Shown: piece after piece, positions 48,238 through 64,000 of the stretch
Position numbering within the stretch: position 1 is the stretch's first letter
Layout of the letters: every line of letters starts with the position of its first letter
Source: Flavobacteriaceae bacterium UBA3611
GTDB lineage: Bacteria; Bacteroidota; Bacteroidia; Flavobacteriales; Flavobacteriaceae
Assembly (NCBI GenBank): GCA_002375495.1
Contig: DFLU01000005.1
Coordinates: forward strand, 103,503-167,502
DNA length: 64,000 nt
Reading direction: 5' to 3'
Notes under the pieces: generated by a model
Told to the model about the DNA's origin: nothing
What the model saw: the letters and a program-made list of their open reading frames with translations, nothing else
Databases searched by the model: none
Position numbers and translations under genes: made by a program

Positions 48238-49005
48238 ATGAAAACAGGATTGGTTCTATCGGGTGGTGGCGCGAGAGGTGTTGCGCACATAGGGGTGCTA
48301 AAAGCGCTCGAAGAACGGCAAATAGAAATTACACATCTATCAGGCACCAGTGCTGGCGCCATTGTTGGTGCGCTTTATGCTGCGGGGCATTCTTGGGAAA
48401 CCATACTCACCTTTTTTAAGAAGGTACCTATTTTTCATTACAAGCGCTATGCGTATAACAAGCCTGGATTTATAGACACCATAAAGTTTTACAGTGATTT
48501 TTTCGGTTTCTTTGAAGAAGACGATTTTGACTCTCTACAACGGAAACTTTACATTCCTGCTACAAATCTTATTGAAGGAACCGAACGCGTATTTGACGAA
48601 GGACAACTCATTAAACCCGTACTCGCTTCAGCAGCATTTCCAGGTTTGTTTACGCCAGTTCTTATAGATGAAATTCCCTATGTTGATGGAGGAGTACTGA
48701 ACAATTTCCCAGTAGAGCCCCTTAAAAAACAGTGTGACACACTCATCGGCGTATATGTAAATCCGTTGGAAAAAATAGATGTTTCCGAACTGAAACATTC
48801 GTACCAAGTAGCCAATCGGGCTTATCACATTAGTTTTGGCAGCCATTGTGTCGCGAAATTCAACGAATTAGATCTGTTGATCGCTCCCAAAAATATCAAT
48901 CGGTATGGCATGTTCAACTTAAAGAATATTGATGCTATTTTTGAAATCGGCTACAATGCTGCCGTGGCCTCTTTAAAAGAATTTGTACTGCCCAAGCAAC
49001 GTTAG
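48238..49005 (+). CDS. Patatin-like phospholipase
   Basis: GGGARG, GTSAG and DGG motifs. Confidence 0.95.
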   Translation: MKTGLVLSGGGARGVAHIGVLKALEERQIEITHLSGTSAGAIVGALYAAGHSWETILTFFKKVPIFHYKRYAYNKPGFIDTIKFYSDFFGFFEEDDFDSLQRKLYIPATNLIEGTERVFDEGQLIKPVLASAAFPGLFTPVLIDEIPYVDGGVLNNFPVEPLKKQCDTLIGVYVNPLEKIDVSELKHSYQVANRAYHISFGSHCVAKFNELDLLIAPKNINRYGMFNLKNIDAIFEIGYNAAVASLKEFVLPKQR

Positions 49006-51637: not shown

Positions 51638-52366
51638 TTACAGATTACTGATAATGCTAGCCAGACCTATTCCCAAGATCAGGAATAGCACGATGTATCG
51701 AAACTGTTCTTGCGACATTTTGTTGAGAATTAGTTTCCCGATCCAAGTGCCTAAAATTCCGACCACGATCAGAATGGGAATAAGGTATAAGAGTTCTATT
51801 TTTATATAGCCATTAAAGTAGTAGACAACAGTCCGGCTCACATCTACCCCTAAATCGATGATCGCAGAAGTAGCGATAAACTTGTCTTTATTCATCTTAA
51901 AGGCCGCCAAGGTAATACCGCGAATCGCACCACCTGTACCTAAAACCCCTGCGCTTAGGCCAGAAAGCACGCCACCAGCAACAGCATTCTTAGTCGTTGG
52001 TTTTACCGCCAGTTTTTTAAAAATCAGAAACAACAGACTTAAAACAACGAGAAAGATTCCAAGGCTATATGTTAAGATAGTCGGATCTATATATTTACTT
52101 ATAAATCCGCCGATAATCACAAAAAGTACCGCTGGCACCCCTAGGGTTAAGATGACTTTCTTATCGATTCCTTTTCTGAAAAATGCAATTTTGGTAAGAT
52201 TACTAGAAACATGGTAGAGCGCAGTAATCCCTAACACCGATTGGAATTCTAGAAAAAAGTTGGCTACGGGCACAAAAAACACCGATGATCCGAATCCGCC
52301 CACCGTACCAAAAATTTCAGCCAGCAATGACAGAATGATAAAAACGGGAAGGTAGCGTGATAGCAT
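51638..52366 (-). CDS. TauE/SafE (TSUP) family membrane transporter
   Basis: Start MLSRYLP (the ORF-track start overlaps the -7 element); GGFGSS and GTGGAIR repeats; multi-TM. Confidence 0.88.
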   Translation of the reverse strand: MLSRYLPVFIILSLLAEIFGTVGGFGSSVFFVPVANFFLEFQSVLGITALYHVSSNLTKIAFFRKGIDKKVILTLGVPAVLFVIIGGFISKYIDPTILTYSLGIFLVVLSLLFLIFKKLAVKPTTKNAVAGGVLSGLSAGVLGTGGAIRGITLAAFKMNKDKFIATSAIIDLGVDVSRTVVYYFNGYIKIELLYLIPILIVVGILGTWIGKLILNKMSQEQFRYIVLFLILGIGLASIISNL

Positions 52367-52414
52367 GTTTGTTACATATTGAACAAACATAGCACAATGG
52401 ATACATTAAGGTTA

Positions 52415-52426
52415 TGACATTTATCA
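52415..52426 (-). promoter_or_regulatory. FNR-like box 11
   Basis: TGACATTTATCA, 23 nt from a perfect -7 element TATGTTTG (52384-52391, minus strand). Confidence 0.75.
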
Positions 52427-52709
52427 CTCTAAGATTATCACGGCCCACTACGGTAGCTTTCGAACAAAAAACAGGGTTTTTTCTGTTGATTTTGGTTGCG
52501 GAAAACCGTAAAATGGTCTGCTGTTTTATTTTGATATTGGCGGTTAAACGGGGGTGGATAACTGAAACAAAAATTACGTGTTTTTGGATATTTTGGGGAA
52601 AGTGGGGAATGGGTATATTTACACGAAATGACTTTGTTTGGCCTTATTGGACCGAAAAAAAAAGTTAAAAGTAGTTTTAAAACAAATTTGCAATAATTAA
52701 AACAGAATT

Positions 52710-53294
52710 ATGGCACATAAATGTTTCATAACATTCAAAACGGAAGACATCTCATATAAGGAATATATCAGAGATGAAATGGACGTTGATATGATTGACA
52801 AATCATTAAATGATCCAATAAATTCAGACGATGAAGACTTTATAATGAGAAAAATCAGAGAGGACTATCTTTCTGATTCTACAGTCACAATTTGTCTAAT
52901 TGGCAGTAGGAGTAGCGAAAATTTAGGTTGGGATGAACAGAGGTTTATAAAACGTGAACTTCAAGCTTCACTTTATAATGGGCAAAATAATTCTAAAAGC
53001 GGGATTTTAGGTATTGTCTTGCCATCAATGTATGATTCTATCTATACAGGCTCTGGGATTTGTGATACTTGTGGAAACTCACATACTTATGTTAATATTA
53101 ATGATTCGACAATAATTAAGGAATTTAGTTATAATTATTATATACCTAATAACAAATGCGCTTGGAGTGAAGATGATAGATACTGTGTTTTAGTCAAGTG
53201 GTCAGATTTTAAGATAAATCCAAATTATTACATAGACAAAGCTTTTGACAAAAGGTCGAGTAACATATCAAGTAAAACTAAAGTAAGACCATAA
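52710..53294 (+). CDS. TIR-like protein (ThsB/DUF1863-like)
   Basis: KCFITF first strand, STVTICLIG, FIKRE (candidate catalytic E83), YYIDKAF end; CDTCGNSH insert. Confidence 0.85.
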   Translation: MAHKCFITFKTEDISYKEYIRDEMDVDMIDKSLNDPINSDDEDFIMRKIREDYLSDSTVTICLIGSRSSENLGWDEQRFIKRELQASLYNGQNNSKSGILGIVLPSMYDSIYTGSGICDTCGNSHTYVNINDSTIIKEFSYNYYIPNNKCAWSEDDRYCVLVKWSDFKINPNYYIDKAFDKRSSNISSKTKVRP

Positions 53295-54178
53295 TGGAGT
53301 TTAAAGATTTCCCAGGTTTATACCAAGCTTCTGATGAAGCTTCTCTATCTGCTCAAAAAAATTATAAAAATATTATAGCATACGATTTGATTACTATGAT
53401 TATCGCATCTGCTCTTGCGATTTATAATTACCAGAAAGTGGAACCTAAATTAATTGTTTATGTAATTTCCGGTATTTTCTTACTGATAAGTTTTGCTTTA
53501 ACATTAATTATAAGAACGAAAAAATTTGAAGATGTTTGGTATCAAGGAAGAGCATTAGCTGAATCTTGTAAAACTTTAACTTGGAGATTTGTAACTTGTT
53601 CCGAAAGCTTCGAAAATGACTTAACTAAACAAGATGTAGAAGACTATTTTATATCTAGAGTAAGGGAATTAAGCAAAGAATTTAAAGAATTAAATGATTC
53701 TTTAAATGCAAAAATTGTTGTACTACCCGTAATAACAGATAAAATGTGGGAAATAAGAACCTTAAATACTTTAGAAAGAAAGCAGTACTATATTGAGAAT
53801 AGAATTAATGACCAAAAAGATTGGTACGCTTCAAAAGCAGAATTTAATAAAAAAAAGTATGACAATTGGTTTTTATTAATAATAATATCTCAATTTATAG
53901 CCATAATAAGCGTAGCTTTTCTTATTAAGTATCCTGAATCTAATTGGAATTTAGTAGGTTTATTTACAACCATTTCTGCTTCAGCAATTAGTTGGCTTCA
54001 ATTAAAGCAGCATCAAGAACTCAAACAAGCATACACAACCGCAGCTCAAGAATTGAATTTTATACAAGCATCATTTGGTAATATTAATTCAGATTTAGAA
54101 TTAGCAGAATTTGTTTTGGATTCAGAAAATGCAATTTCTCGTGAACATACTTTATGGCTTGCTCAAAGAAGAAAATAA
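53294..54178 (+). CDS. Double SLATT (DUF4231-like) 4-TM effector
   Basis: Two pairs of TM helices; WYQGRALAESCKTLTWRF, DQKDWY..KA..N, HQEL..AY and E.AISREHTLW motifs. Confidence 0.85.
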   Translation: MEFKDFPGLYQASDEASLSAQKNYKNIIAYDLITMIIASALAIYNYQKVEPKLIVYVISGIFLLISFALTLIIRTKKFEDVWYQGRALAESCKTLTWRFVTCSESFENDLTKQDVEDYFISRVRELSKEFKELNDSLNAKIVVLPVITDKMWEIRTLNTLERKQYYIENRINDQKDWYASKAEFNKKKYDNWFLLIIISQFIAIISVAFLIKYPESNWNLVGLFTTISASAISWLQLKQHQELKQAYTTAAQELNFIQASFGNINSDLELAEFVLDSENAISREHTLWLAQRRK

Positions 54179-54715
54179 ATGACAAATAATAATTCATATA
54201 ATTCCTCTTGGTTAGAACTAATAATTTCTATTGGAGGTGTTTTGCTTTTTGCTCATCTGATATCAAAATTAATAGACTATTTAATTGGTAATTATTATAG
54301 TGAAGAGGATTACTATTTAGAAAAAAGAAAGAAAAGAAAACCTCGGATTTTCGTAAGTCATTCTTGGAAACATAACAAAGATTATAACAATCTTATAAAA
54401 GGATTTGAAAAGCAAGGTTTTGTTTATTATAATCACAGTATATCATTAGAAAAAGCAGAGGATTTAACAAACGGAAAGGAAATTGAAAATAAAATAAAAA
54501 ACCAATTGCTTTATAGCAGATGTCTGCTTGTTCTTGGTGGTAGTTATTCGAATAAGTACTGGATAAAAAAAGAGGTCGAAATAGCAAAATCACTAGGAAA
54601 GAAAGTAATTGCAGTTAGACCTTGGAATACTGACAATATTCCGAAATATTTAGAGAAATCAGCTGATGAAATTATTGGATTTAATTCTAAAGCGATTATT
54701 GAAAAAATAAAATAA
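54179..54715 (+). CDS. TIR-like protein (MTH538/ThsB-like) with N-terminal TM helix
   Basis: TM WLELIISIGGVLLFAHLISKLI, basic KRKKRK, RIFVSHSW, YWIKKE (candidate catalytic E132), KVIAVRPW. Confidence 0.85.
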   Translation: MTNNNSYNSSWLELIISIGGVLLFAHLISKLIDYLIGNYYSEEDYYLEKRKKRKPRIFVSHSWKHNKDYNNLIKGFEKQGFVYYNHSISLEKAEDLTNGKEIENKIKNQLLYSRCLLVLGGSYSNKYWIKKEVEIAKSLGKKVIAVRPWNTDNIPKYLEKSADEIIGFNSKAIIEKIK

Positions 54716-54781
54716 CTATTGCTAACAGCGCATAATAAAAATATTGCATTTAAAGAAATTAAACTATTTGTGCTCATTTAA

Positions 54782-54816
54782 TAAACAAAAACCGCCACAG
54801 TTGTACCGTGGCGGTC
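54782..54816 (-). terminator. Intrinsic terminator downstream of the rtcB remnant
   Basis: ACCGCCAC (54791-54798) pairs with GTGGCGGT (54808-54815); TTTTGTTTA follows on the minus strand. Confidence 0.65.
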
Positions 54817-54850
54817 TTATACAGTGAGAAAATGCAATTAAATTACGTTA

Positions 54851-55066
<216 letters not shown>

Positions 55067-55081
55067 TCAAAGCCTGTTTAA

Positions 55082-55714
55082 TCAATCACACTCCTCCCCA
55101 TACTTCTCCACCATATACCGGGTAGCTTGTTTTAGTGTTTTTCCATTGACCGGATGCAATCCATGATACGTGAAAAATGTGACCACATCGTCGGATTTAT
55201 CATACCATAAAACAGGTTGGCCGTTTTTTTTGACCGCTGCATCTTTGCAAACTTCAACCCTTTTCATTTTTCTGAGTGTTTTGGTATCACATGCTCGTTC
55301 AAGACGCTTACCGCTACATGCGGTTTCCTCCCAATGATCTTCCATCCAAATCATACAACACGTTTCGTCTGTAACAAAGAAATTCCAAGACAACGAAACT
55401 CCCAAGGCCATAATTAAAAACCAAAGCAAATAACTAGAAACTTTGTTACCATTCCTTGTGTTTTTCTGTACGAAGTCACGGTAACTTTCATAACCAATAT
55501 ATCTCGCCAATTGATCCTTCGAATTATTTGCAACATTAAAAGGAATATGATTATTATACTTTCGATAATACCCCCGGATGGCATCGGCTGTGATGGGCTG
55601 TTTTTCTGTTTTCTCTAATGTTTGGTGAATTTCGGAAGCTATAGCACTGCCACTACGCGCAGTTGCTTTTTTGCTTGCTTTCTCAAATACCTTCTTTAAA
55701 AAATTTCGTAACAC
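55082..55714 (-). CDS. Membrane-anchored hypothetical protein (helical N-domain, TM, Cys-rich C-domain)
   Basis: Probable GTG start at 55714 (ORF track extends to 55783); TM YLLWFLIMALGVSLSWNFF; CCMIW..HWEETAC and LWYDK..TFFTYHGLHP. Confidence 0.75.
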   Translation of the reverse strand: MLRNFLKKVFEKASKKATARSGSAIASEIHQTLEKTEKQPITADAIRGYYRKYNNHIPFNVANNSKDQLARYIGYESYRDFVQKNTRNGNKVSSYLLWFLIMALGVSLSWNFFVTDETCCMIWMEDHWEETACSGKRLERACDTKTLRKMKRVEVCKDAAVKKNGQPVLWYDKSDDVVTFFTYHGLHPVNGKTLKQATRYMVEKYGEECD

Positions 55715-56081: not shown

Positions 56082-56249
56082 ATGAAAAAGTTGTCATATA
56101 TCATGCTTTCATGTTTGCTAGGCGGACTTATTTTCTCCTGCACTCCCGAGAGCCAAATAACCACAGATGAAGTCGCGTGTTGCGGTGAAGATGGTCATTT
56201 ACCCCCACCGCCTCCACCACCCCCACCACCACCAAATGGCGGGGACTAA
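56082..56249 (+). CDS. 55-aa lipopeptide with (Pro)11 tail, absent from ORF track
   Basis: MKKLSYIMLSCLLGGLIFSC-TPESQITTDEVACCGEDGHLPPPPPPPPPPPNGGD*: basic N-terminus, hydrophobic core, lipobox IFSC, mixed Pro codons; ends 30 nt before the kinase ATG. Confidence 0.8.
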   Translation: MKKLSYIMLSCLLGGLIFSCTPESQITTDEVACCGEDGHLPPPPPPPPPPPNGGD

Positions 56250-56279: not shown

Positions 56280-57950
56280 ATGGAAAAATCAAACTTTTCA
56301 TTCCTCTTTTTTTTGAAGGTAGTATTCATGCTGAGCAGTTTACTATCATCATCATCATATTGTTTCGCGCAACAAACAGTGGATAGCACTGCCTATTTCT
56401 ACAACAAGATTTTAAACCCTGATTCTGCAGACGATCTAGTCGTTAGTTACGTGTACTTCAAAAAATATAAAGAAGAGAAAGGTATAGACCAAGACACTCT
56501 TGGACTTGTTTTCACATACCAAATGTTAGCAATGGCGGAATATAAATTGGGCCAAATCTACGCTAGTGAACAATCAGCCATTGAGGCTCTTAAATTGAAA
56601 GAGATTGCTTCAGATGTATTACAGTTTCCCGACGGGACCGAAAGTCGCATCAATAATCATTTAGGCATGGTCTACAGAACTACCGCCCAACCTGAAAAAG
56701 CTATACAAATCTATTCTAAAGCCTTATCGAAAAACAAAAGCTTAAAGGATAGCCTTATACTCTTAAACAACTTAGCGAATGCCCATCGGGATAGCGGAAA
56801 CTATGATGAGGCAGTTGACTTATTGACGTCAGTTGTTAGAAGAAATAAAAAATTGAACAATCCGGTTGAAACAGCCAGGGCGTTGGATAATTTGGGATAT
56901 ACACAAGCATTGGCTAATGACCCGAAAGGACTAGAAAACATGTTGGAAGCACTAGAACTTCGGAAAGAATTAGGCAATCCTGGCCAACTTTTTACAAGTT
57001 ATAATCATCTTACCGAATACTACGCATCCATAGGCGATACCACCACTGCTAGAATGTATGCCGTTTTGGGAAAGAATCTCGCGAAAAAGGTGAGCACAAA
57101 ATATCGTCAAGAGGCCCTTGAGTCTTACTTTGCGTTAAGTGATGATCCCGAAATTGTGGAATACATTCGTAATAACGACAGTATCACAAAAGCGTCCCTT
57201 CAAAATGATATCAAATTCGCGAGTATCAAATATGACTTTTCAAAAGAACAAGAACGAACCCAGGTTGCGCAACTAGAACGTCAGAAAGAAAGTCAAAGGA
57301 AAAATCTCTTTAAGGTCATTGGGCTATTTATATTATTGCTGGGTATAGCGTTATATTTCGTATTGAAGTATCGCCATCGAAAGGAGAAAGTTGAAGAAAT
57401 CTATCGAACCGAATCCCGAATTTCTAAAAAAGTACATGATGAAGTAGCTAATGATCTTTATCAAATTATGAGCAAAATACAGACCTCTATCCAATCAAAT
57501 GATACAATACTCGATGATTTAGATTCGGTATACCACAAAACCCGGGATATTTCAAAAGATTATGGACTAATTGAACCGGAAGAAGAATTCGGCGAACTCT
57601 TAAACGACCTGCTCCTAAACTATCAAAACGACCAAGTGAATGTGATCTCCAAAAACTTGCTTCGTATCGATTGGAATGGCTTGGCAACCGAAAAAAAGAT
57701 TGCCCTCTATCGAGTGTTACAGGAGTTAATGACCAATATGCGCAAGCATAGCGAAGCCTCATTAGTAGTGGTTTCAGCAGAAAAGCTGGGAAGTAAATAT
57801 GTTGTTGAATATACCGATAACGGTACGGGTGGCCCTATAAAAATAGGCAACGGACTCCGAAATGCGGAAAACCGTATTCACTCGGTAAAGGGAACGATTA
57901 TATTTGAACCAACCGAAAGAAATGGCTTCAAGGCAAAAATAAAGTTGTAG
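56280..57950 (+). CDS. TPR-repeat sensor histidine kinase (HisKA_3 type)
   Basis: Signal-like N-terminus, TPRs (NNHLG, LNNLA, LDNLG), TM helix, KKVHDEVAN H-box, ELMTNMRKHS, DNGTG, GNGLRN. Confidence 0.93.
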   Translation: MEKSNFSFLFFLKVVFMLSSLLSSSSYCFAQQTVDSTAYFYNKILNPDSADDLVVSYVYFKKYKEEKGIDQDTLGLVFTYQMLAMAEYKLGQIYASEQSAIEALKLKEIASDVLQFPDGTESRINNHLGMVYRTTAQPEKAIQIYSKALSKNKSLKDSLILLNNLANAHRDSGNYDEAVDLLTSVVRRNKKLNNPVETARALDNLGYTQALANDPKGLENMLEALELRKELGNPGQLFTSYNHLTEYYASIGDTTTARMYAVLGKNLAKKVSTKYRQEALESYFALSDDPEIVEYIRNNDSITKASLQNDIKFASIKYDFSKEQERTQVAQLERQKESQRKNLFKVIGLFILLLGIALYFVLKYRHRKEKVEEIYRTESRISKKVHDEVANDLYQIMSKIQTSIQSNDTILDDLDSVYHKTRDISKDYGLIEPEEEFGELLNDLLLNYQNDQVNVISKNLLRIDWNGLATEKKIALYRVLQELMTNMRKHSEASLVVVSAEKLGSKYVVEYTDNGTGGPIKIGNGLRNAENRIHSVKGTIIFEPTERNGFKAKIKL

Positions 57951-61148: not shown

Positions 61149-61270
61149 GCACGCCCACGACATGATATCGACTAAAACGTACGAAACCATCACTGGAAAC
61201 TAAGTGAATCTACGTATACCAGAAATTGAATGATTCTGCTATATTTGAAAATCAACTAACGCAACTCCCA

Positions 61271-64000
61271 TTGGAACCCAACCAAAACCCAGAACAACTT
61301 GCACGCGACCGGATTGACGAAATGCTTCGTGAGGCAGGATGGGTTGTGCAATCTAAAAATCAAGTTGATCTATCAGCAAATATTGGTGTTGCCCTACGAG
61401 AGACGAATACAGCTTCTGGCTCTGCAGACTATATGCTGTTTGTTAATAGAAATCCCGTGGGTGTTATAGAAGCCAAGCGTGAAGACGAGGGGCATAGACT
61501 AACGATGGTTGAAGAACAATCTGAACGATATGCCACTGAGGCCATTAAAATAGGTTCGTTTACACTTGAAGGAATTAAGCCATTTGTGTACGAGAGTACT
61601 GGGACGATTACTCGCTTTACCAACTATCGAGATCCGAAACCAAGAGGCAGAAATGTTTTTAGCTTTCATAAGCCCGAGACTTTAGCCGATTGGCTAAAAA
61701 AAGATAAAAGTCTTCGTGAGCGATTGTTATCAATACCAGACCTTGATGAATCCGGACTCCGTCCCGCTCAAATCGTAGCCATCAATAACTTGGAAAATTC
61801 TTTTAAAAAGAATAGACCCAAGGCGTTAATCCAAATGGCCACGGGTGCTGGAAAAACCTTCACAGCCGCAACTTTTGTGTATCGTTTGCTCAAACACGCC
61901 GATGCAAAACGAATATTATTTTTGGTAGACACCAAAAACCTTGGAGAACAGGCAGAACAGGAGTTTATGACCTTCCAACCAAATGATGACAACCGAAAAT
62001 TCACTGAATTGTATAACGTGCAGCGATTATCTTCAAGCTACATTGCTTCAGATAGTCAAGTGTGCATTTCAACCATACAACGCCTCTACTCTATTCTAAA
62101 AGGTGAAGAATTAGACGAGAGTGCAGAAGAAGCCAATCCAAATGAATCCCGATATTTATCGGGATGGCTGCAACAGAAAATGGCGAAGAACAAAGCCGTG
62201 CCAGTGGAGTACACCCCAAAAGTACCTATCGAACAATTCGATTTTATTGTTATTGATGAGGCGCACCGTTCTATTTATAACCTATGGAAACAGGTATTGG
62301 ATTATTTTGATGCGTTTCTAATTGGACTAACCGCTACACCAGATAAGAGAACCTTTGGTTTTTTTAATGAAAATGTGGTGAGTCAGTATACGTATGAAGA
62401 ATCGGTAACCGATGGTGTAAATGTGCCTTATGATGTGTACACGATTGAAACTGAAATTTCACAGAAAGGCGAAGTAGTAAAGGCTGGTTGGTTTGTTGAC
62501 AGGCGCGACAAACTCACGCGTAAAAAACGTTGGCAACAAGAAGATGAAGATACCGACTACAATCGCAATGATCTAGATAAAAAAGTAGTCAACCCTAGCC
62601 AAATCAGAAATATCATTCGTGAATTTAAAAGGGCTTTGAAAACTACGATTTATCCAAATCGTATTGATTCAAATGGAGAATACGAAGTACCTAAAACATT
62701 AGTCTTTGCCAAAACTGATAGCCACGCAGACGATATCATAAAGATCATCAGGGAAGAATTTGACGAAGGCAACGACTTTTGTAAAAAAGTAACGTACAAA
62801 ATTGAAGAAGACCCGAAATCGGTGTTGAATCGCTTTCGTAATTCATATTATCCAAGAATTGCCGTAACTGTTGATATGATTGCCACAGGTACAGACGTAA
62901 AACCTTTGGAGGTATTGTTATTTATGCGGGATGTTAAAAGCATCAACTATTTTGAACAAATGAAAGGTCGTGGCACACGAACTATTAATAGCGATTCTTT
63001 ACAACTTGTATCCAGAACAGCTAAAACAAAGACACATTTTGTCATAGTAGACGCGGTTGGTGCCACCAAGTCTAAAAAAACAGACAGCAGACCATTGGAA
63101 CGCAAACCAACTGTACCCATGAAAGATTTATTGGGGGCCGTAACCATGGGAGTTGCCGACGAAGATTTGTTCTTGTCTCTGGCCAATCGATTGATACGTT
63201 TGGAAAAACAAATCACGGAAAAAGAAAAAGATAAATTATTGGAATTTTCTGGTGGCAAAAACTTAAAGCAGATCACCAAAGAACTCATTACAGCATACGA
63301 TCAAGATGCCATTGAAACCAGAGCGCAACTAGAAATTGACAAAATTCCTGTACAAGACCAAACCCCAGCGTTAATCGAAGAGGCAAAAAAGCACGCTCAA
63401 AATGCCCTTATTTTAGAAGCAACCAAAACATTTAATGGTGAGCTCAACGAATATTTAGACAACGTTCGCAAGCAACATGAACAAATTATTGATAGCATAA
63501 ACATAGATACCGTTACAAAGAGCGAATGGGAAACCACTTCTGTGGATAAAGCAACCCAAATCATCAAAGATTTTAGCGAATATCTCGAAGCAAACAAAGA
63601 CGAAATTACCGCGCTAAGTATATTCTACGACCAACCTTATAATCGCAGAAACATCACCTTTAACATGATAAAGGAGGTATTTGAAAAACTAAAGCTTGAA
63701 AAGCCTACGTTGGCACCAGATTACGTTTGGGAAGCCTATGTCACCTTGAGCGCTGTCGAAAGGTCGCAACAACCAAAAGAGGAACTAACAGCCTTAGTTT
63801 CCCTAATTAGAAAAGTGTGCGGCATCGATAGCGAGTTAAAGCCTTTTGATAAAACCATAGATGAAAATTTCAAAAACTGGATGTTTAAGCAAAATGCGGG
63901 GCAACACAACCGTTTTACACCAGAGCAAGTAGAATGGTTACGAATGATTAAAGACCACGTCGTGAGCAGTTACCATATCGAATTGGACGATTTAGACTAT
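61271..64000 (+). CDS. hsdR: Type I restriction enzyme R subunit (EcoAI/EcoEI-like), 3' end outside window
   Basis: Absent from the ORF track (no stop in window). Probable TTG start (MEPNQNPEQLARDRID; alternative ATG 61322); ADYML..VIEAK nuclease motif, MATGAGKT Walker A, DEAH, GLTATP, QMKGRGTR. Confidence 0.93.
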   Translation, partial: MEPNQNPEQLARDRIDEMLREAGWVVQSKNQVDLSANIGVALRETNTASGSADYMLFVNRNPVGVIEAKREDEGHRLTMVEEQSERYATEAIKIGSFTLEGIKPFVYESTGTITRFTNYRDPKPRGRNVFSFHKPETLADWLKKDKSLRERLLSIPDLDESGLRPAQIVAINNLENSFKKNRPKALIQMATGAGKTFTAATFVYRLLKHADAKRILFLVDTKNLGEQAEQEFMTFQPNDDNRKFTELYNVQRLSSSYIASDSQVCISTIQRLYSILKGEELDESAEEANPNESRYLSGWLQQKMAKNKAVPVEYTPKVPIEQFDFIVIDEAHRSIYNLWKQVLDYFDAFLIGLTATPDKRTFGFFNENVVSQYTYEESVTDGVNVPYDVYTIETEISQKGEVVKAGWFVDRRDKLTRKKRWQQEDEDTDYNRNDLDKKVVNPSQIRNIIREFKRALKTTIYPNRIDSNGEYEVPKTLVFAKTDSHADDIIKIIREEFDEGNDFCKKVTYKIEEDPKSVLNRFRNSYYPRIAVTVDMIATGTDVKPLEVLLFMRDVKSINYFEQMKGRGTRTINSDSLQLVSRTAKTKTHFVIVDAVGATKSKKTDSRPLERKPTVPMKDLLGAVTMGVADEDLFLSLANRLIRLEKQITEKEKDKLLEFSGGKNLKQITKELITAYDQDAIETRAQLEIDKIPVQDQTPALIEEAKKHAQNALILEATKTFNGELNEYLDNVRKQHEQIIDSINIDTVTKSEWETTSVDKATQIIKDFSEYLEANKDEITALSIFYDQPYNRRNITFNMIKEVFEKLKLEKPTLAPDYVWEAYVTLSAVERSQQPKEELTALVSLIRKVCGIDSELKPFDKTIDENFKNWMFKQNAGQHNRFTPEQVEWLRMIKDHVVSSYHIELDDLDY
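63739..63765. repeat. REP-like element in frame within hsdR
   Basis: TGTCACCTTGAGCGCTGTCGAA matches the reverse complement of the intergenic monomer (11617-11638) at 19 of 22 positions; encodes VTLSAVE. Confidence 0.75.

Follow-up and report, generated by a model that had tools for sequence, protein, structure and literature searches.

A predicted type VII Thoeris cassette with two ThsB-type TIR genes, one of them membrane-anchored, in a marine flavobacterium

Within a 64,000-nucleotide stretch of contig DFLU01000005.1 of Flavobacteriaceae bacterium UBA3611 (the whole stretch analyzed, defined as "the window") we studied an operon of three genes. In order, they encode a ThsB-type TIR protein (ThsB1), a membrane protein with two SLATT domains (ThsH) and a second, membrane-anchored ThsB-type TIR protein (ThsB2). 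We consider it quite probable that the operon works as a type VII Thoeris system, in which two ThsB sensor-enzymes make canonical cyclic ADP-ribose (cADPR) and act on one ThsH membrane effector to cause abortive infection. An earlier interpretation made from the DNA alone (the sequence-only reading) had proposed a Thoeris-type system with a SLATT membrane effector replacing ThsA. This core proposal is upheld by homologous systems that have been shown to defend against phages. The novelty claimed for a TIR-SLATT system is not, as the combination has already been named and validated as type VII Thoeris. The sequence-only reading had itself allowed that a match to a characterized system would remove novelty and, since a validated type VII exists, this is now the case at the level of the system type. 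The cassette should not be presented as a new system, and its correct label should be type VII Thoeris (thsB-thsH-thsB).

Type VII was defined by Yirmiya et al. (10.64898/2025.12.03.692087, December 2025), whose scan of defense islands for operons with TIR genes led to seven new, validated Thoeris types. In their preprint, type VII consists of a ThsB TIR protein and a SLATT effector called ThsH, and phage protection was reported for the systems from B. licheniformis SCCB 37, Pseudohongiella nitratireducens SCS-111 and an Alteromonadales metagenomic scaffold. The type VII TIRs yield canonical cADPR on infection only. Cells with a type VII system are arrested by cADPR in the medium, but not by 2'cADPR or 3'cADPR. 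The same authors modelled ThsH as an oligomer that spans the membrane and has pockets of positive charge between its protomers, and noted that types VII and VIII have cADPR as a common signal and occasionally occur in one operon. An April 2026 preprint employed a type VII system as a specific cADPR reporter.

The three open reading frames (ORFs) of the window cassette are intact (Table 1). The stop codon of thsB1 overlaps the start codon of thsH in the sequence TAATG (TAA at 53292-53294, ATG at 53294-53296), and the ATG of thsB2 (54179-54181) abuts the TAA of thsH (54176-54178). Both thsB genes are translationally coupled to thsH. The cassette has a GC content of 0.288, the lowest among 2,031-bp segments across the 64 kb (mean 0.389, standard deviation 0.024). 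No gene for a SIR2, Macro, SLOG or caspase protein adjoins the operon, whose neighbors encode a TauE protein and a protein without a Pfam domain. The sequence-only reading had described three coupled genes (TIR, double SLATT and transmembrane TIR) with these junctions, sharp AT-richness and no adjacent effector of those four kinds, and the ORFs and sequence agree with it on each point.

The middle gene encodes the effector. Pfam identified a SLATT_3 domain (aa 7-163, 2e-31) followed by a SLATT_1 domain (aa 166-288, 4e-37) in ThsH, and NCBIfam supports both. The preprint tables give TIR-domain sequences without effector sequences; hence we compared ThsH with the validated effectors through a proxy. 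The TIR domain of the validated Alteromonadales ThsB served as the query in a scan of metagenome contigs. In L042 and L043, ThsB genes with 95% identity to that ThsB are directly followed by a gene for a 288-290-aa protein with SLATT_3 and SLATT_1 domains, as in the window SLATT. Residues 1-294 of the window protein align with residues 1-290 of the proxy, end to end, with 35% identity (E-value 1e-66). The protein is also the four-transmembrane, double-SLATT protein that had been described. Its first helical hairpin (aa 26-74) has hydrophobic segments at 26-44 and 54-72, matched by helices 8-47 and 53-75 of the AlphaFold2 (AF2) model. The second (aa 190-238) has a hydrophobic segment at 193-211 and AF2 helices at 190-212 and 221-263, with a less hydrophobic fourth helix. 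The model (predicted local distance difference test score, pLDDT, 82) is all-helical, with the two hydrophobic hairpins and long cytoplasmic helices. No solved relative was detected: a sequence profile search of the PDB gave noise, and Foldseek with the AF2 model gave nothing under E 0.05 (TM-scores 0.22 or less). The SLATT family of ThsH comprises 677 matches, nearly all of about 294 aa and chiefly from Bacteroidota, and many residues are invariant.

Both TIR proteins exceed the Pfam cut-off for ThsB_TIR. ThsB1 scores 31.7 bits (PF08937, cut-off 21.2) and matches the PADLOC ThsB model at 2e-13. ThsB2 matches ThsB_TIR at 8e-13, TIR_2 at 3e-7 and PADLOC ThsB at 2e-12. The sequence-only reading had named E83 and E132 as candidate catalytic glutamates. 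These two residues fall in the sole invariant Glu column when aligned with nine tested ThsB TIR domains, including that of B. cereus MSX-D12 ThsB, whose Glu in this column is the catalytic E85. Within their own families they are also conserved, E83 in all of 28 ThsB1 homologues and E132 in all of 18 ThsB2 family members. The cassette combines two ThsB-type TIR genes, a SLATT effector that is homologous, by proxy, to a validated ThsH, and the catalytic Glu of the TIR domain in each ThsB. On these sequence criteria it belongs to type VII Thoeris, and the operon is real and probably functional.

Most of the 2,841 matches in the ThsB1 family have a fixed length of 194 aa. The AF2 model of ThsB1 is of modest confidence (pLDDT 71). 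Its best fold match, and only clear structural relative, is 9vyl_A, a crystal structure of the ThsB BdThsB1 with NAD (E 3.6e-7); by sequence, ThsB1 had no match in the PDB, and the fold search alone reached a ThsB. The CDTCGNSH stretch that had been pointed out in this protein as a possible metal-binding insert is real. Its C118, C121 and H125, together with C150 and C159, are each invariant in the 28 homologues (alignment A3), and the E. coli type VI ThsB has counterparts of C118, C121 and C159. The cluster is a plausible candidate for a structural metal site. ThsB1 also has a full-length match to the PHROG family phrog_13658, whose function is not known, at 1.5e-84. Therefore, ThsBs of this kind are also carried by phages or prophages.

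To place the arrangement in context, we scanned species-representative genomes for the window SLATT and compared the neighboring genes with the TIR domains of the preprint. Among the 37 loci, 30 are from Bacteroidota, and in 28 of these 30 a ThsB gene adjoins the SLATT gene (one of the two exceptions is truncated). The upstream gene encodes a ThsB1-type TIR in 20 loci and, in 7 loci, a 170-aa TIR near the type VII ThsB of Bacillus sp. PvP124 (1e-55). At least one further ThsB gene lies downstream in about 14 of the approximately 27 loci with enough downstream sequence. It encodes a TIR of about 200 aa without a transmembrane helix in 11 loci and a ThsB2-type protein in 2. One locus has three consecutive TIRs. 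Other SLATT partners are near tested type VII ThsBs (Alteromonadales-type, 3e-47; B. nitratireducens-type, 2e-42). Given the ThsB in 28 of 30 loci and the variety of partners, ThsH is therefore the constant element, and the ThsBs, from one to three in number, are interchangeable. With two or more ThsBs at about half of the evaluable loci, two divergent TIRs around one effector are ordinary Thoeris modularity and not a new architecture.

Not every protein with SLATT_3 and SLATT_1 domains is a ThsH, since actinobacterial relatives (about 30% identity) lack a detectable TIR neighbor. SLATT_3+SLATT_1-like proteins of this kind, sharing about 30% identity with the window ThsH, occur in L035-L040 (Actinomycetota and Acidobacteriota), and in L035 two divergent SLATT genes lie in tail-to-tail orientation. 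They may come from other conflict systems. Separately, one related operon (L096, 3148-3994; L097, 2144-2990) has a broken SLATT gene that yields a 62-aa SLATT_3 fragment and a 194-aa SLATT_1 fragment, owing either to pseudogene formation or to faulty assembly.

The cassette is compact and, as sequence comparison shows, was horizontally acquired. A 2,031-bp segment that starts 23 nt before the first ATG and ends 2 nt past the last stop codon is 92.9% identical (blastn) to a region of Psychroserpens sp. BH13MA-6 (L001, GCA_052983595.1). The match covers exactly that span, and the Psychroserpens copy sits in an unrelated genomic neighborhood. The homologous TIR-SLATT-TM-TIR operon (TM, transmembrane) of Seonamhaeicola sp. 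ML3 is at another site again. Directly after the cassette, the Psychroserpens genome encodes a 410-aa TPR-S protein and a 133-aa ThsB (L001:9579-11218), the latter 59% identical to the validated type VIII ThsB from a Pseudomonas scaffold. A type VIII Thoeris is probably stacked there on the type VII system, which fits a common cADPR signal.

The organism of the window occurs in marine metagenomes, and proteins identical to those of the cassette are encoded on more than 20 independent metagenomic contigs. A search among genomes of the same organism found no empty site: the cassette is present on every contig that encodes the identical TauE or SLATT protein and reaches far enough. The flanks are never joined without it, and in four runs the contigs showed no joints. 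The transferred 23-nt leader, TTTGCAATAATTAAAACAGAATT, contains the motif TTGGCAATAATTAAAAA; it also precedes the ATG of the TIR1-type thsB in L001, L015, L019, L020 and L029. This conserved leader of about 20 nt, which travels with ThsB1-type genes, may serve in translation initiation or belong to a promoter. We found no Bacteroidetes TAnnTTTG box upstream of thsB1, a sigma-70 promoter scan at the cassette remained at background level, and an Rfam search over 52300-55200 gave nothing above threshold. No usable RNA data for the cassette were found, the single freshwater metatranscriptome containing 8% of the words.

The background-level promoter scan and the transfer of just 23 nt upstream of thsB1 are compatible with a cassette that is an inactive or decaying passenger, intact yet unexpressed, or not protective against the phages of a marine flavobacterium. 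So are the lack of usable RNA data and the split SLATT gene of one related operon. We regard this as extremely improbable, given three intact ORFs, the recurrence of identical proteins on the independent contigs and the invariant functional residues in all three protein families.

In our proposed mechanism, ThsB1 (cytosolic) and ThsB2 (tethered to the inner membrane face by one helix) would be inactive until a phage cue appears. The activated TIR would then turn nicotinamide adenine dinucleotide (NAD+) into a cyclic ADP-ribose signal by means of E83 or E132, the most likely product being canonical cADPR. This signal would bind the cytoplasmic helical part of the four-helix ThsH, and the signal-bound ThsH would oligomerize and breach the membrane. 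Growth would stop before the phage cycle is completed, that is, by abortive infection. Two ThsBs would widen the range of sensed phages while using one common effector. That the two TIRs respond to different cues, one of them at the membrane, as the sequence-only reading suggested, is plausible.

Several observations weigh against this explanation. In the preprint, three of six tested type VII systems, including the PvP124 type, gave no defense in B. subtilis (10.64898/2025.12.03.692087), and ThsB relatives of this non-defending type pair with the SLATT family of the window. The match to the validated-type effector is only 35%, and the proxy is the neighbor of a 95%-identical ThsB rather than the cloned ThsH. 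The 2023 release of PADLOC has no model that recognizes the effector. The TIR clade is no predictor of the signal: the nearest tested relatives of ThsB1 are 2'cADPR makers, the type VI ThsBs of E. coli S1/ACN001 (33% identity, 1e-24), and the cluster nearest to ThsB2 mixes type IV ThsBs, of the N7-cADPR signal type, with cADPR makers.

Regarding PADLOC, both TIRs were called as ThsB, the thsH product matched no effector model, and there was no system-level call at the locus. Being older than type VII, the database recognizes neither the SLATT of the window nor the proxy for the validated-type ThsH. Besides ThsB, the window TIRs matched only candidate PDC and one weak Argonaute-TIR model.

The relatives of the two TIRs and the 35% identity of the effector also favor a system of the same logic in which the signal is not canonical cADPR (but 2'cADPR, 3'cADPR, N7-cADPR or another molecule), or in which the two ThsBs make different molecules that both act on ThsH. 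Moreover, the preprint notes Thoeris types whose signals are not known. We judge such a system unlikely. ThsB1-type genes with 71-75% identity pair not only with SLATT but also with TPR-S effectors, for example in Sinanaerobacter, and a Chryseobacterium operon with a ThsB1-type gene holds both effectors. The TPR-S proteins beside ThsB1-type genes are 46% identical to that of Psychroserpens, which adjoins the ThsB resembling the validated type VIII protein. Both effector classes are reported as cADPR users. Because ThsB1-type genes pair with both, and types VII and VIII share cADPR, this pattern favors cADPR as the product of ThsB1, short of proof. In addition, one effector with partners from at least four TIR clades is most simply explained by a single ligand.

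The same modularity bears on the roles of the proteins. If the TIRs were effectors that deplete NAD+, the SLATT protein could act in sensing, as a scaffold or as a toxin in its own right, and the operon would be an abortive-infection system with TIR effectors rather than a signaling one. A conserved catalytic Glu fits NADase activity equally well, and the preprint concedes that the TIR could be the toxic effector in unverified configurations. We give this very little credence: homologous type VII systems signal, and added cADPR kills the cells that bear the effector. Further, a constant SLATT with swapped TIRs is the pattern of a fixed effector with variable sensors, and in each Thoeris type tested so far the small ThsB-type TIRs that stand alone generate signals.

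ThsB2 differs from the ThsBs of other type VII systems in its N-terminal membrane anchor, which the sequence-only reading had recognized. A hydrophobic helix at about aa 11-36 (Kyte-Doolittle 2.15 over 19 aa) is followed by KRKKRK, and members of the small ThsB2 family (22 proteins) keep the hydrophobicity of the helix and the basic linker even where the sequence diverges. The positive-inside rule would place the TIR domain in the cytoplasm. The nearest cluster of the preprint mixes type IV, type VIII and type VII (Pseudohongiella) ThsBs, and the TIR domain is 33% identical (6e-21) to that of a Yersinia type VIII ThsB. Eight of the nine distinct contexts of membrane-anchored ThsBs that we examined have a SLATT gene. 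Four-gene operons are among these, as are operons whose SLATT_1 protein has a single hairpin. Exclusivity to SLATT was rejected as an absolute rule, given that L095 has a TPR-S effector and no visible SLATT. A full HMMER search found hydrophobic segments in 21 of its 150 best-matching cluster representatives, and in about 15 of the 21 the segment precedes the TIR domain. Membrane tethering therefore recurs in the clade, and the N-terminal segments, in about a tenth of these 150, were gained independently.

We found no description of a membrane-anchored ThsB in the searchable literature. One idea is that the anchored ThsB2 represents a distinct class of Thoeris sensor for a membrane-proximal infection event, whose signal is released beside ThsH; we regard this as tentative and rather unlikely. 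The cue would be DNA injection, a phage membrane protein or a perturbation of the envelope. ThsB2 might also assemble with ThsH through its transmembrane helix. Beyond the anchor itself, we found no support for the proposal of the sequence-only reading that direct contact between TIR and SLATT opens a pore.

The operons of L077-L079 encode a 241-aa TIR, a 145-aa single-hairpin SLATT_1 protein, a 131-aa ThsB and a membrane-anchored ThsB. They are a minimal-SLATT variant with three TIRs, and that of L077 adjoins genes for an ion channel and an AAA_13 ATPase.

Comparison with known systems agrees with the label. Like type VII, the window has ThsB-type TIR genes with a SLATT_3+SLATT_1 protein of about 290 aa, and the effectors are homologous over their full length. 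As in type VII, too, the catalytic Glu is conserved and the effector is not of the SIR2, SLOG or Macro kind. It differs in that two ThsBs, one of them anchored, flank the effector instead of one, in the 35% identity of the effector, and in its Bacteroidota host, a phylum absent from those that the preprint text names for type VII. ThsB1-type genes also partner TPR-S effectors, as in type VIII (ThsB with ThsI, a CMP-hydrolase/TPR effector), but by Pfam the window operon lacks a TPR-S (ThsI-like) gene, the effector there being a membrane protein. ThsB1 shares its long architecture, including the Cys-rich C-terminal part, with the ThsBs of type VI (ThsB with ThsG, DUF6650, 2'cADPR), but DUF6650 is absent from the window operon by Pfam, and the partner is a SLATT protein.

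TIR signal generators around one effector also recall type I (ThsA, SIR2-SLOG, with ThsB), where several divergent thsB genes per thsA are often found (Doron et al., 2018; Ofir et al., 2021). Unlike type I, the window has no ThsA, and no SIR2 or SLOG in the operon or its immediate neighbors, and the effector would act on the membrane rather than on NAD+. In type II (TIR with TM-Macro, His-ADPR), as proposed here, a TIR signal activates a membrane-spanning killer effector, but the sensor domain is Macro there and SLATT here, and no type II TIR appeared in blastp searches with the window TIRs at E-values up to 10. The SLATT/2TM effectors of CBASS (cyclic-oligonucleotide-based anti-phage signaling systems) are thought to oligomerize on a nucleotide signal, as we propose for ThsH; their signals are generated by a CD-NTase (cGAS/DncV-like nucleotidyltransferase) instead of TIRs, and none of the genes scanned matched SMODS. 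By description, the window also resembles the three-gene AC1 system of P2 phages, in which transmembrane proteins were proposed to receive a signal from a TIR protein (Rousset et al., 2022; PMC9122126). The window SLATT has no PADLOC match of any kind. The AC1 system is listed in DefenseFinder as Rst_2TM_1TM_TIR.

Table 1. Features of the cassette within the window, by position.
Feature	Position	Strand	Description	Basis
Transferred cassette	52687..54717	+	thsB1-thsH-thsB2 with 23-nt leader	blastn, GC
Leader	52687..52709	+	TTTGCAATAATTAAAACAGAATT, directly upstream of thsB1	conservation among loci
thsB1	52710..53294	+	cytosolic ThsB-type TIR, 194 aa, Cys/His-rich C-terminal subdomain	Pfam, PADLOC
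E83 codon	52956..52958	+	predicted catalytic Glu of ThsB1	invariant Glu column
Cys/His cluster	53061..53186	+	C118, C121, H125, C150 and C159 of ThsB1	alignment A3
thsH	53294..54178	+	SLATT_3 + SLATT_1 membrane effector, 294 aa	Pfam, NCBIfam
First transmembrane helical hairpin	53369..53515	+	aa 26-74 of ThsH	hydrophobicity, AF2
Second transmembrane helical hairpin	53861..54007	+	aa 190-238 of ThsH	hydrophobicity, AF2
thsB2	54179..54715	+	membrane-anchored ThsB-type TIR, 178 aa	Pfam, PADLOC
N-terminal transmembrane anchor	54209..54286	+	aa 11-36 of ThsB2, then Lys/Arg-rich linker	hydrophobicity
E132 codon	54572..54574	+	predicted catalytic Glu of ThsB2	family and cross-family alignments

The sequence-only reading had cited an hsdR gene about 6.5 kb away as a sign of a defense island. 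The hsdR fragment is real (61208-64000+, 6.5 kb downstream of the operon), but a histidine kinase with generic TPRs (tetratricopeptide repeats; 56280-57950), a response regulator and proteins of no known kind lie in between. The argument for an island is weak, because these intervening genes have no PADLOC matches and the cassette is found at unrelated sites elsewhere.

Upstream of the operon, an 84-aa ORF (52414-52668), called as a gene on public contigs, was rejected as a part of the system because the transferred cassette does not include it. Its composition is odd, no family matched it, and it is probably non-coding intergenic DNA. Downstream, about 70 nt outside the cassette, is a strong hairpin with a 14-bp stem (54788-54818), followed by a minus-strand T-run. 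It resembles a terminator serving the convergent genes of the minus strand, and its weak match to the Rfam family ncS54 (E 0.06) is probably due to chance. Just beyond, a 55-aa ORF on the minus strand (54851-55018) matches only the last approximately 45 residues of a PHROG tRNA-splicing-ligase (RtcB-like) family (3e-6) and may be a gene remnant. A small ORF at 56082-56249, just upstream of the histidine kinase gene, has a signal-peptide-like start and ends in eleven prolines (PPPPPPPPPPP). Further away, a patatin-like phospholipase (48238-49005) has weak matches to PADLOC phospholipase effectors of CBASS (1e-14); it is probably not a defense gene, because it lies among housekeeping genes for an Mla transporter and Usp.

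In combination, the results extend cADPR-signaling type VII Thoeris, as predicted for this locus, into marine Bacteroidota. They show this ThsH subfamily to be the fixed effector, with ThsB sensors of at least four TIR clades shuffled around it, and such shuffling should be useful for asking what sets the signal chemistry and phage specificity of a ThsB. The membrane-tethered ThsB is the sole unusual feature of the cassette and a testable lead. If the anchoring is relevant, ThsB2 would be, to our knowledge, the first Thoeris sensor placed at the membrane. If the anchored-sensor interpretation is true, the cassette would combine surveillance in the cytosol with surveillance at the membrane, both directed to one effector.

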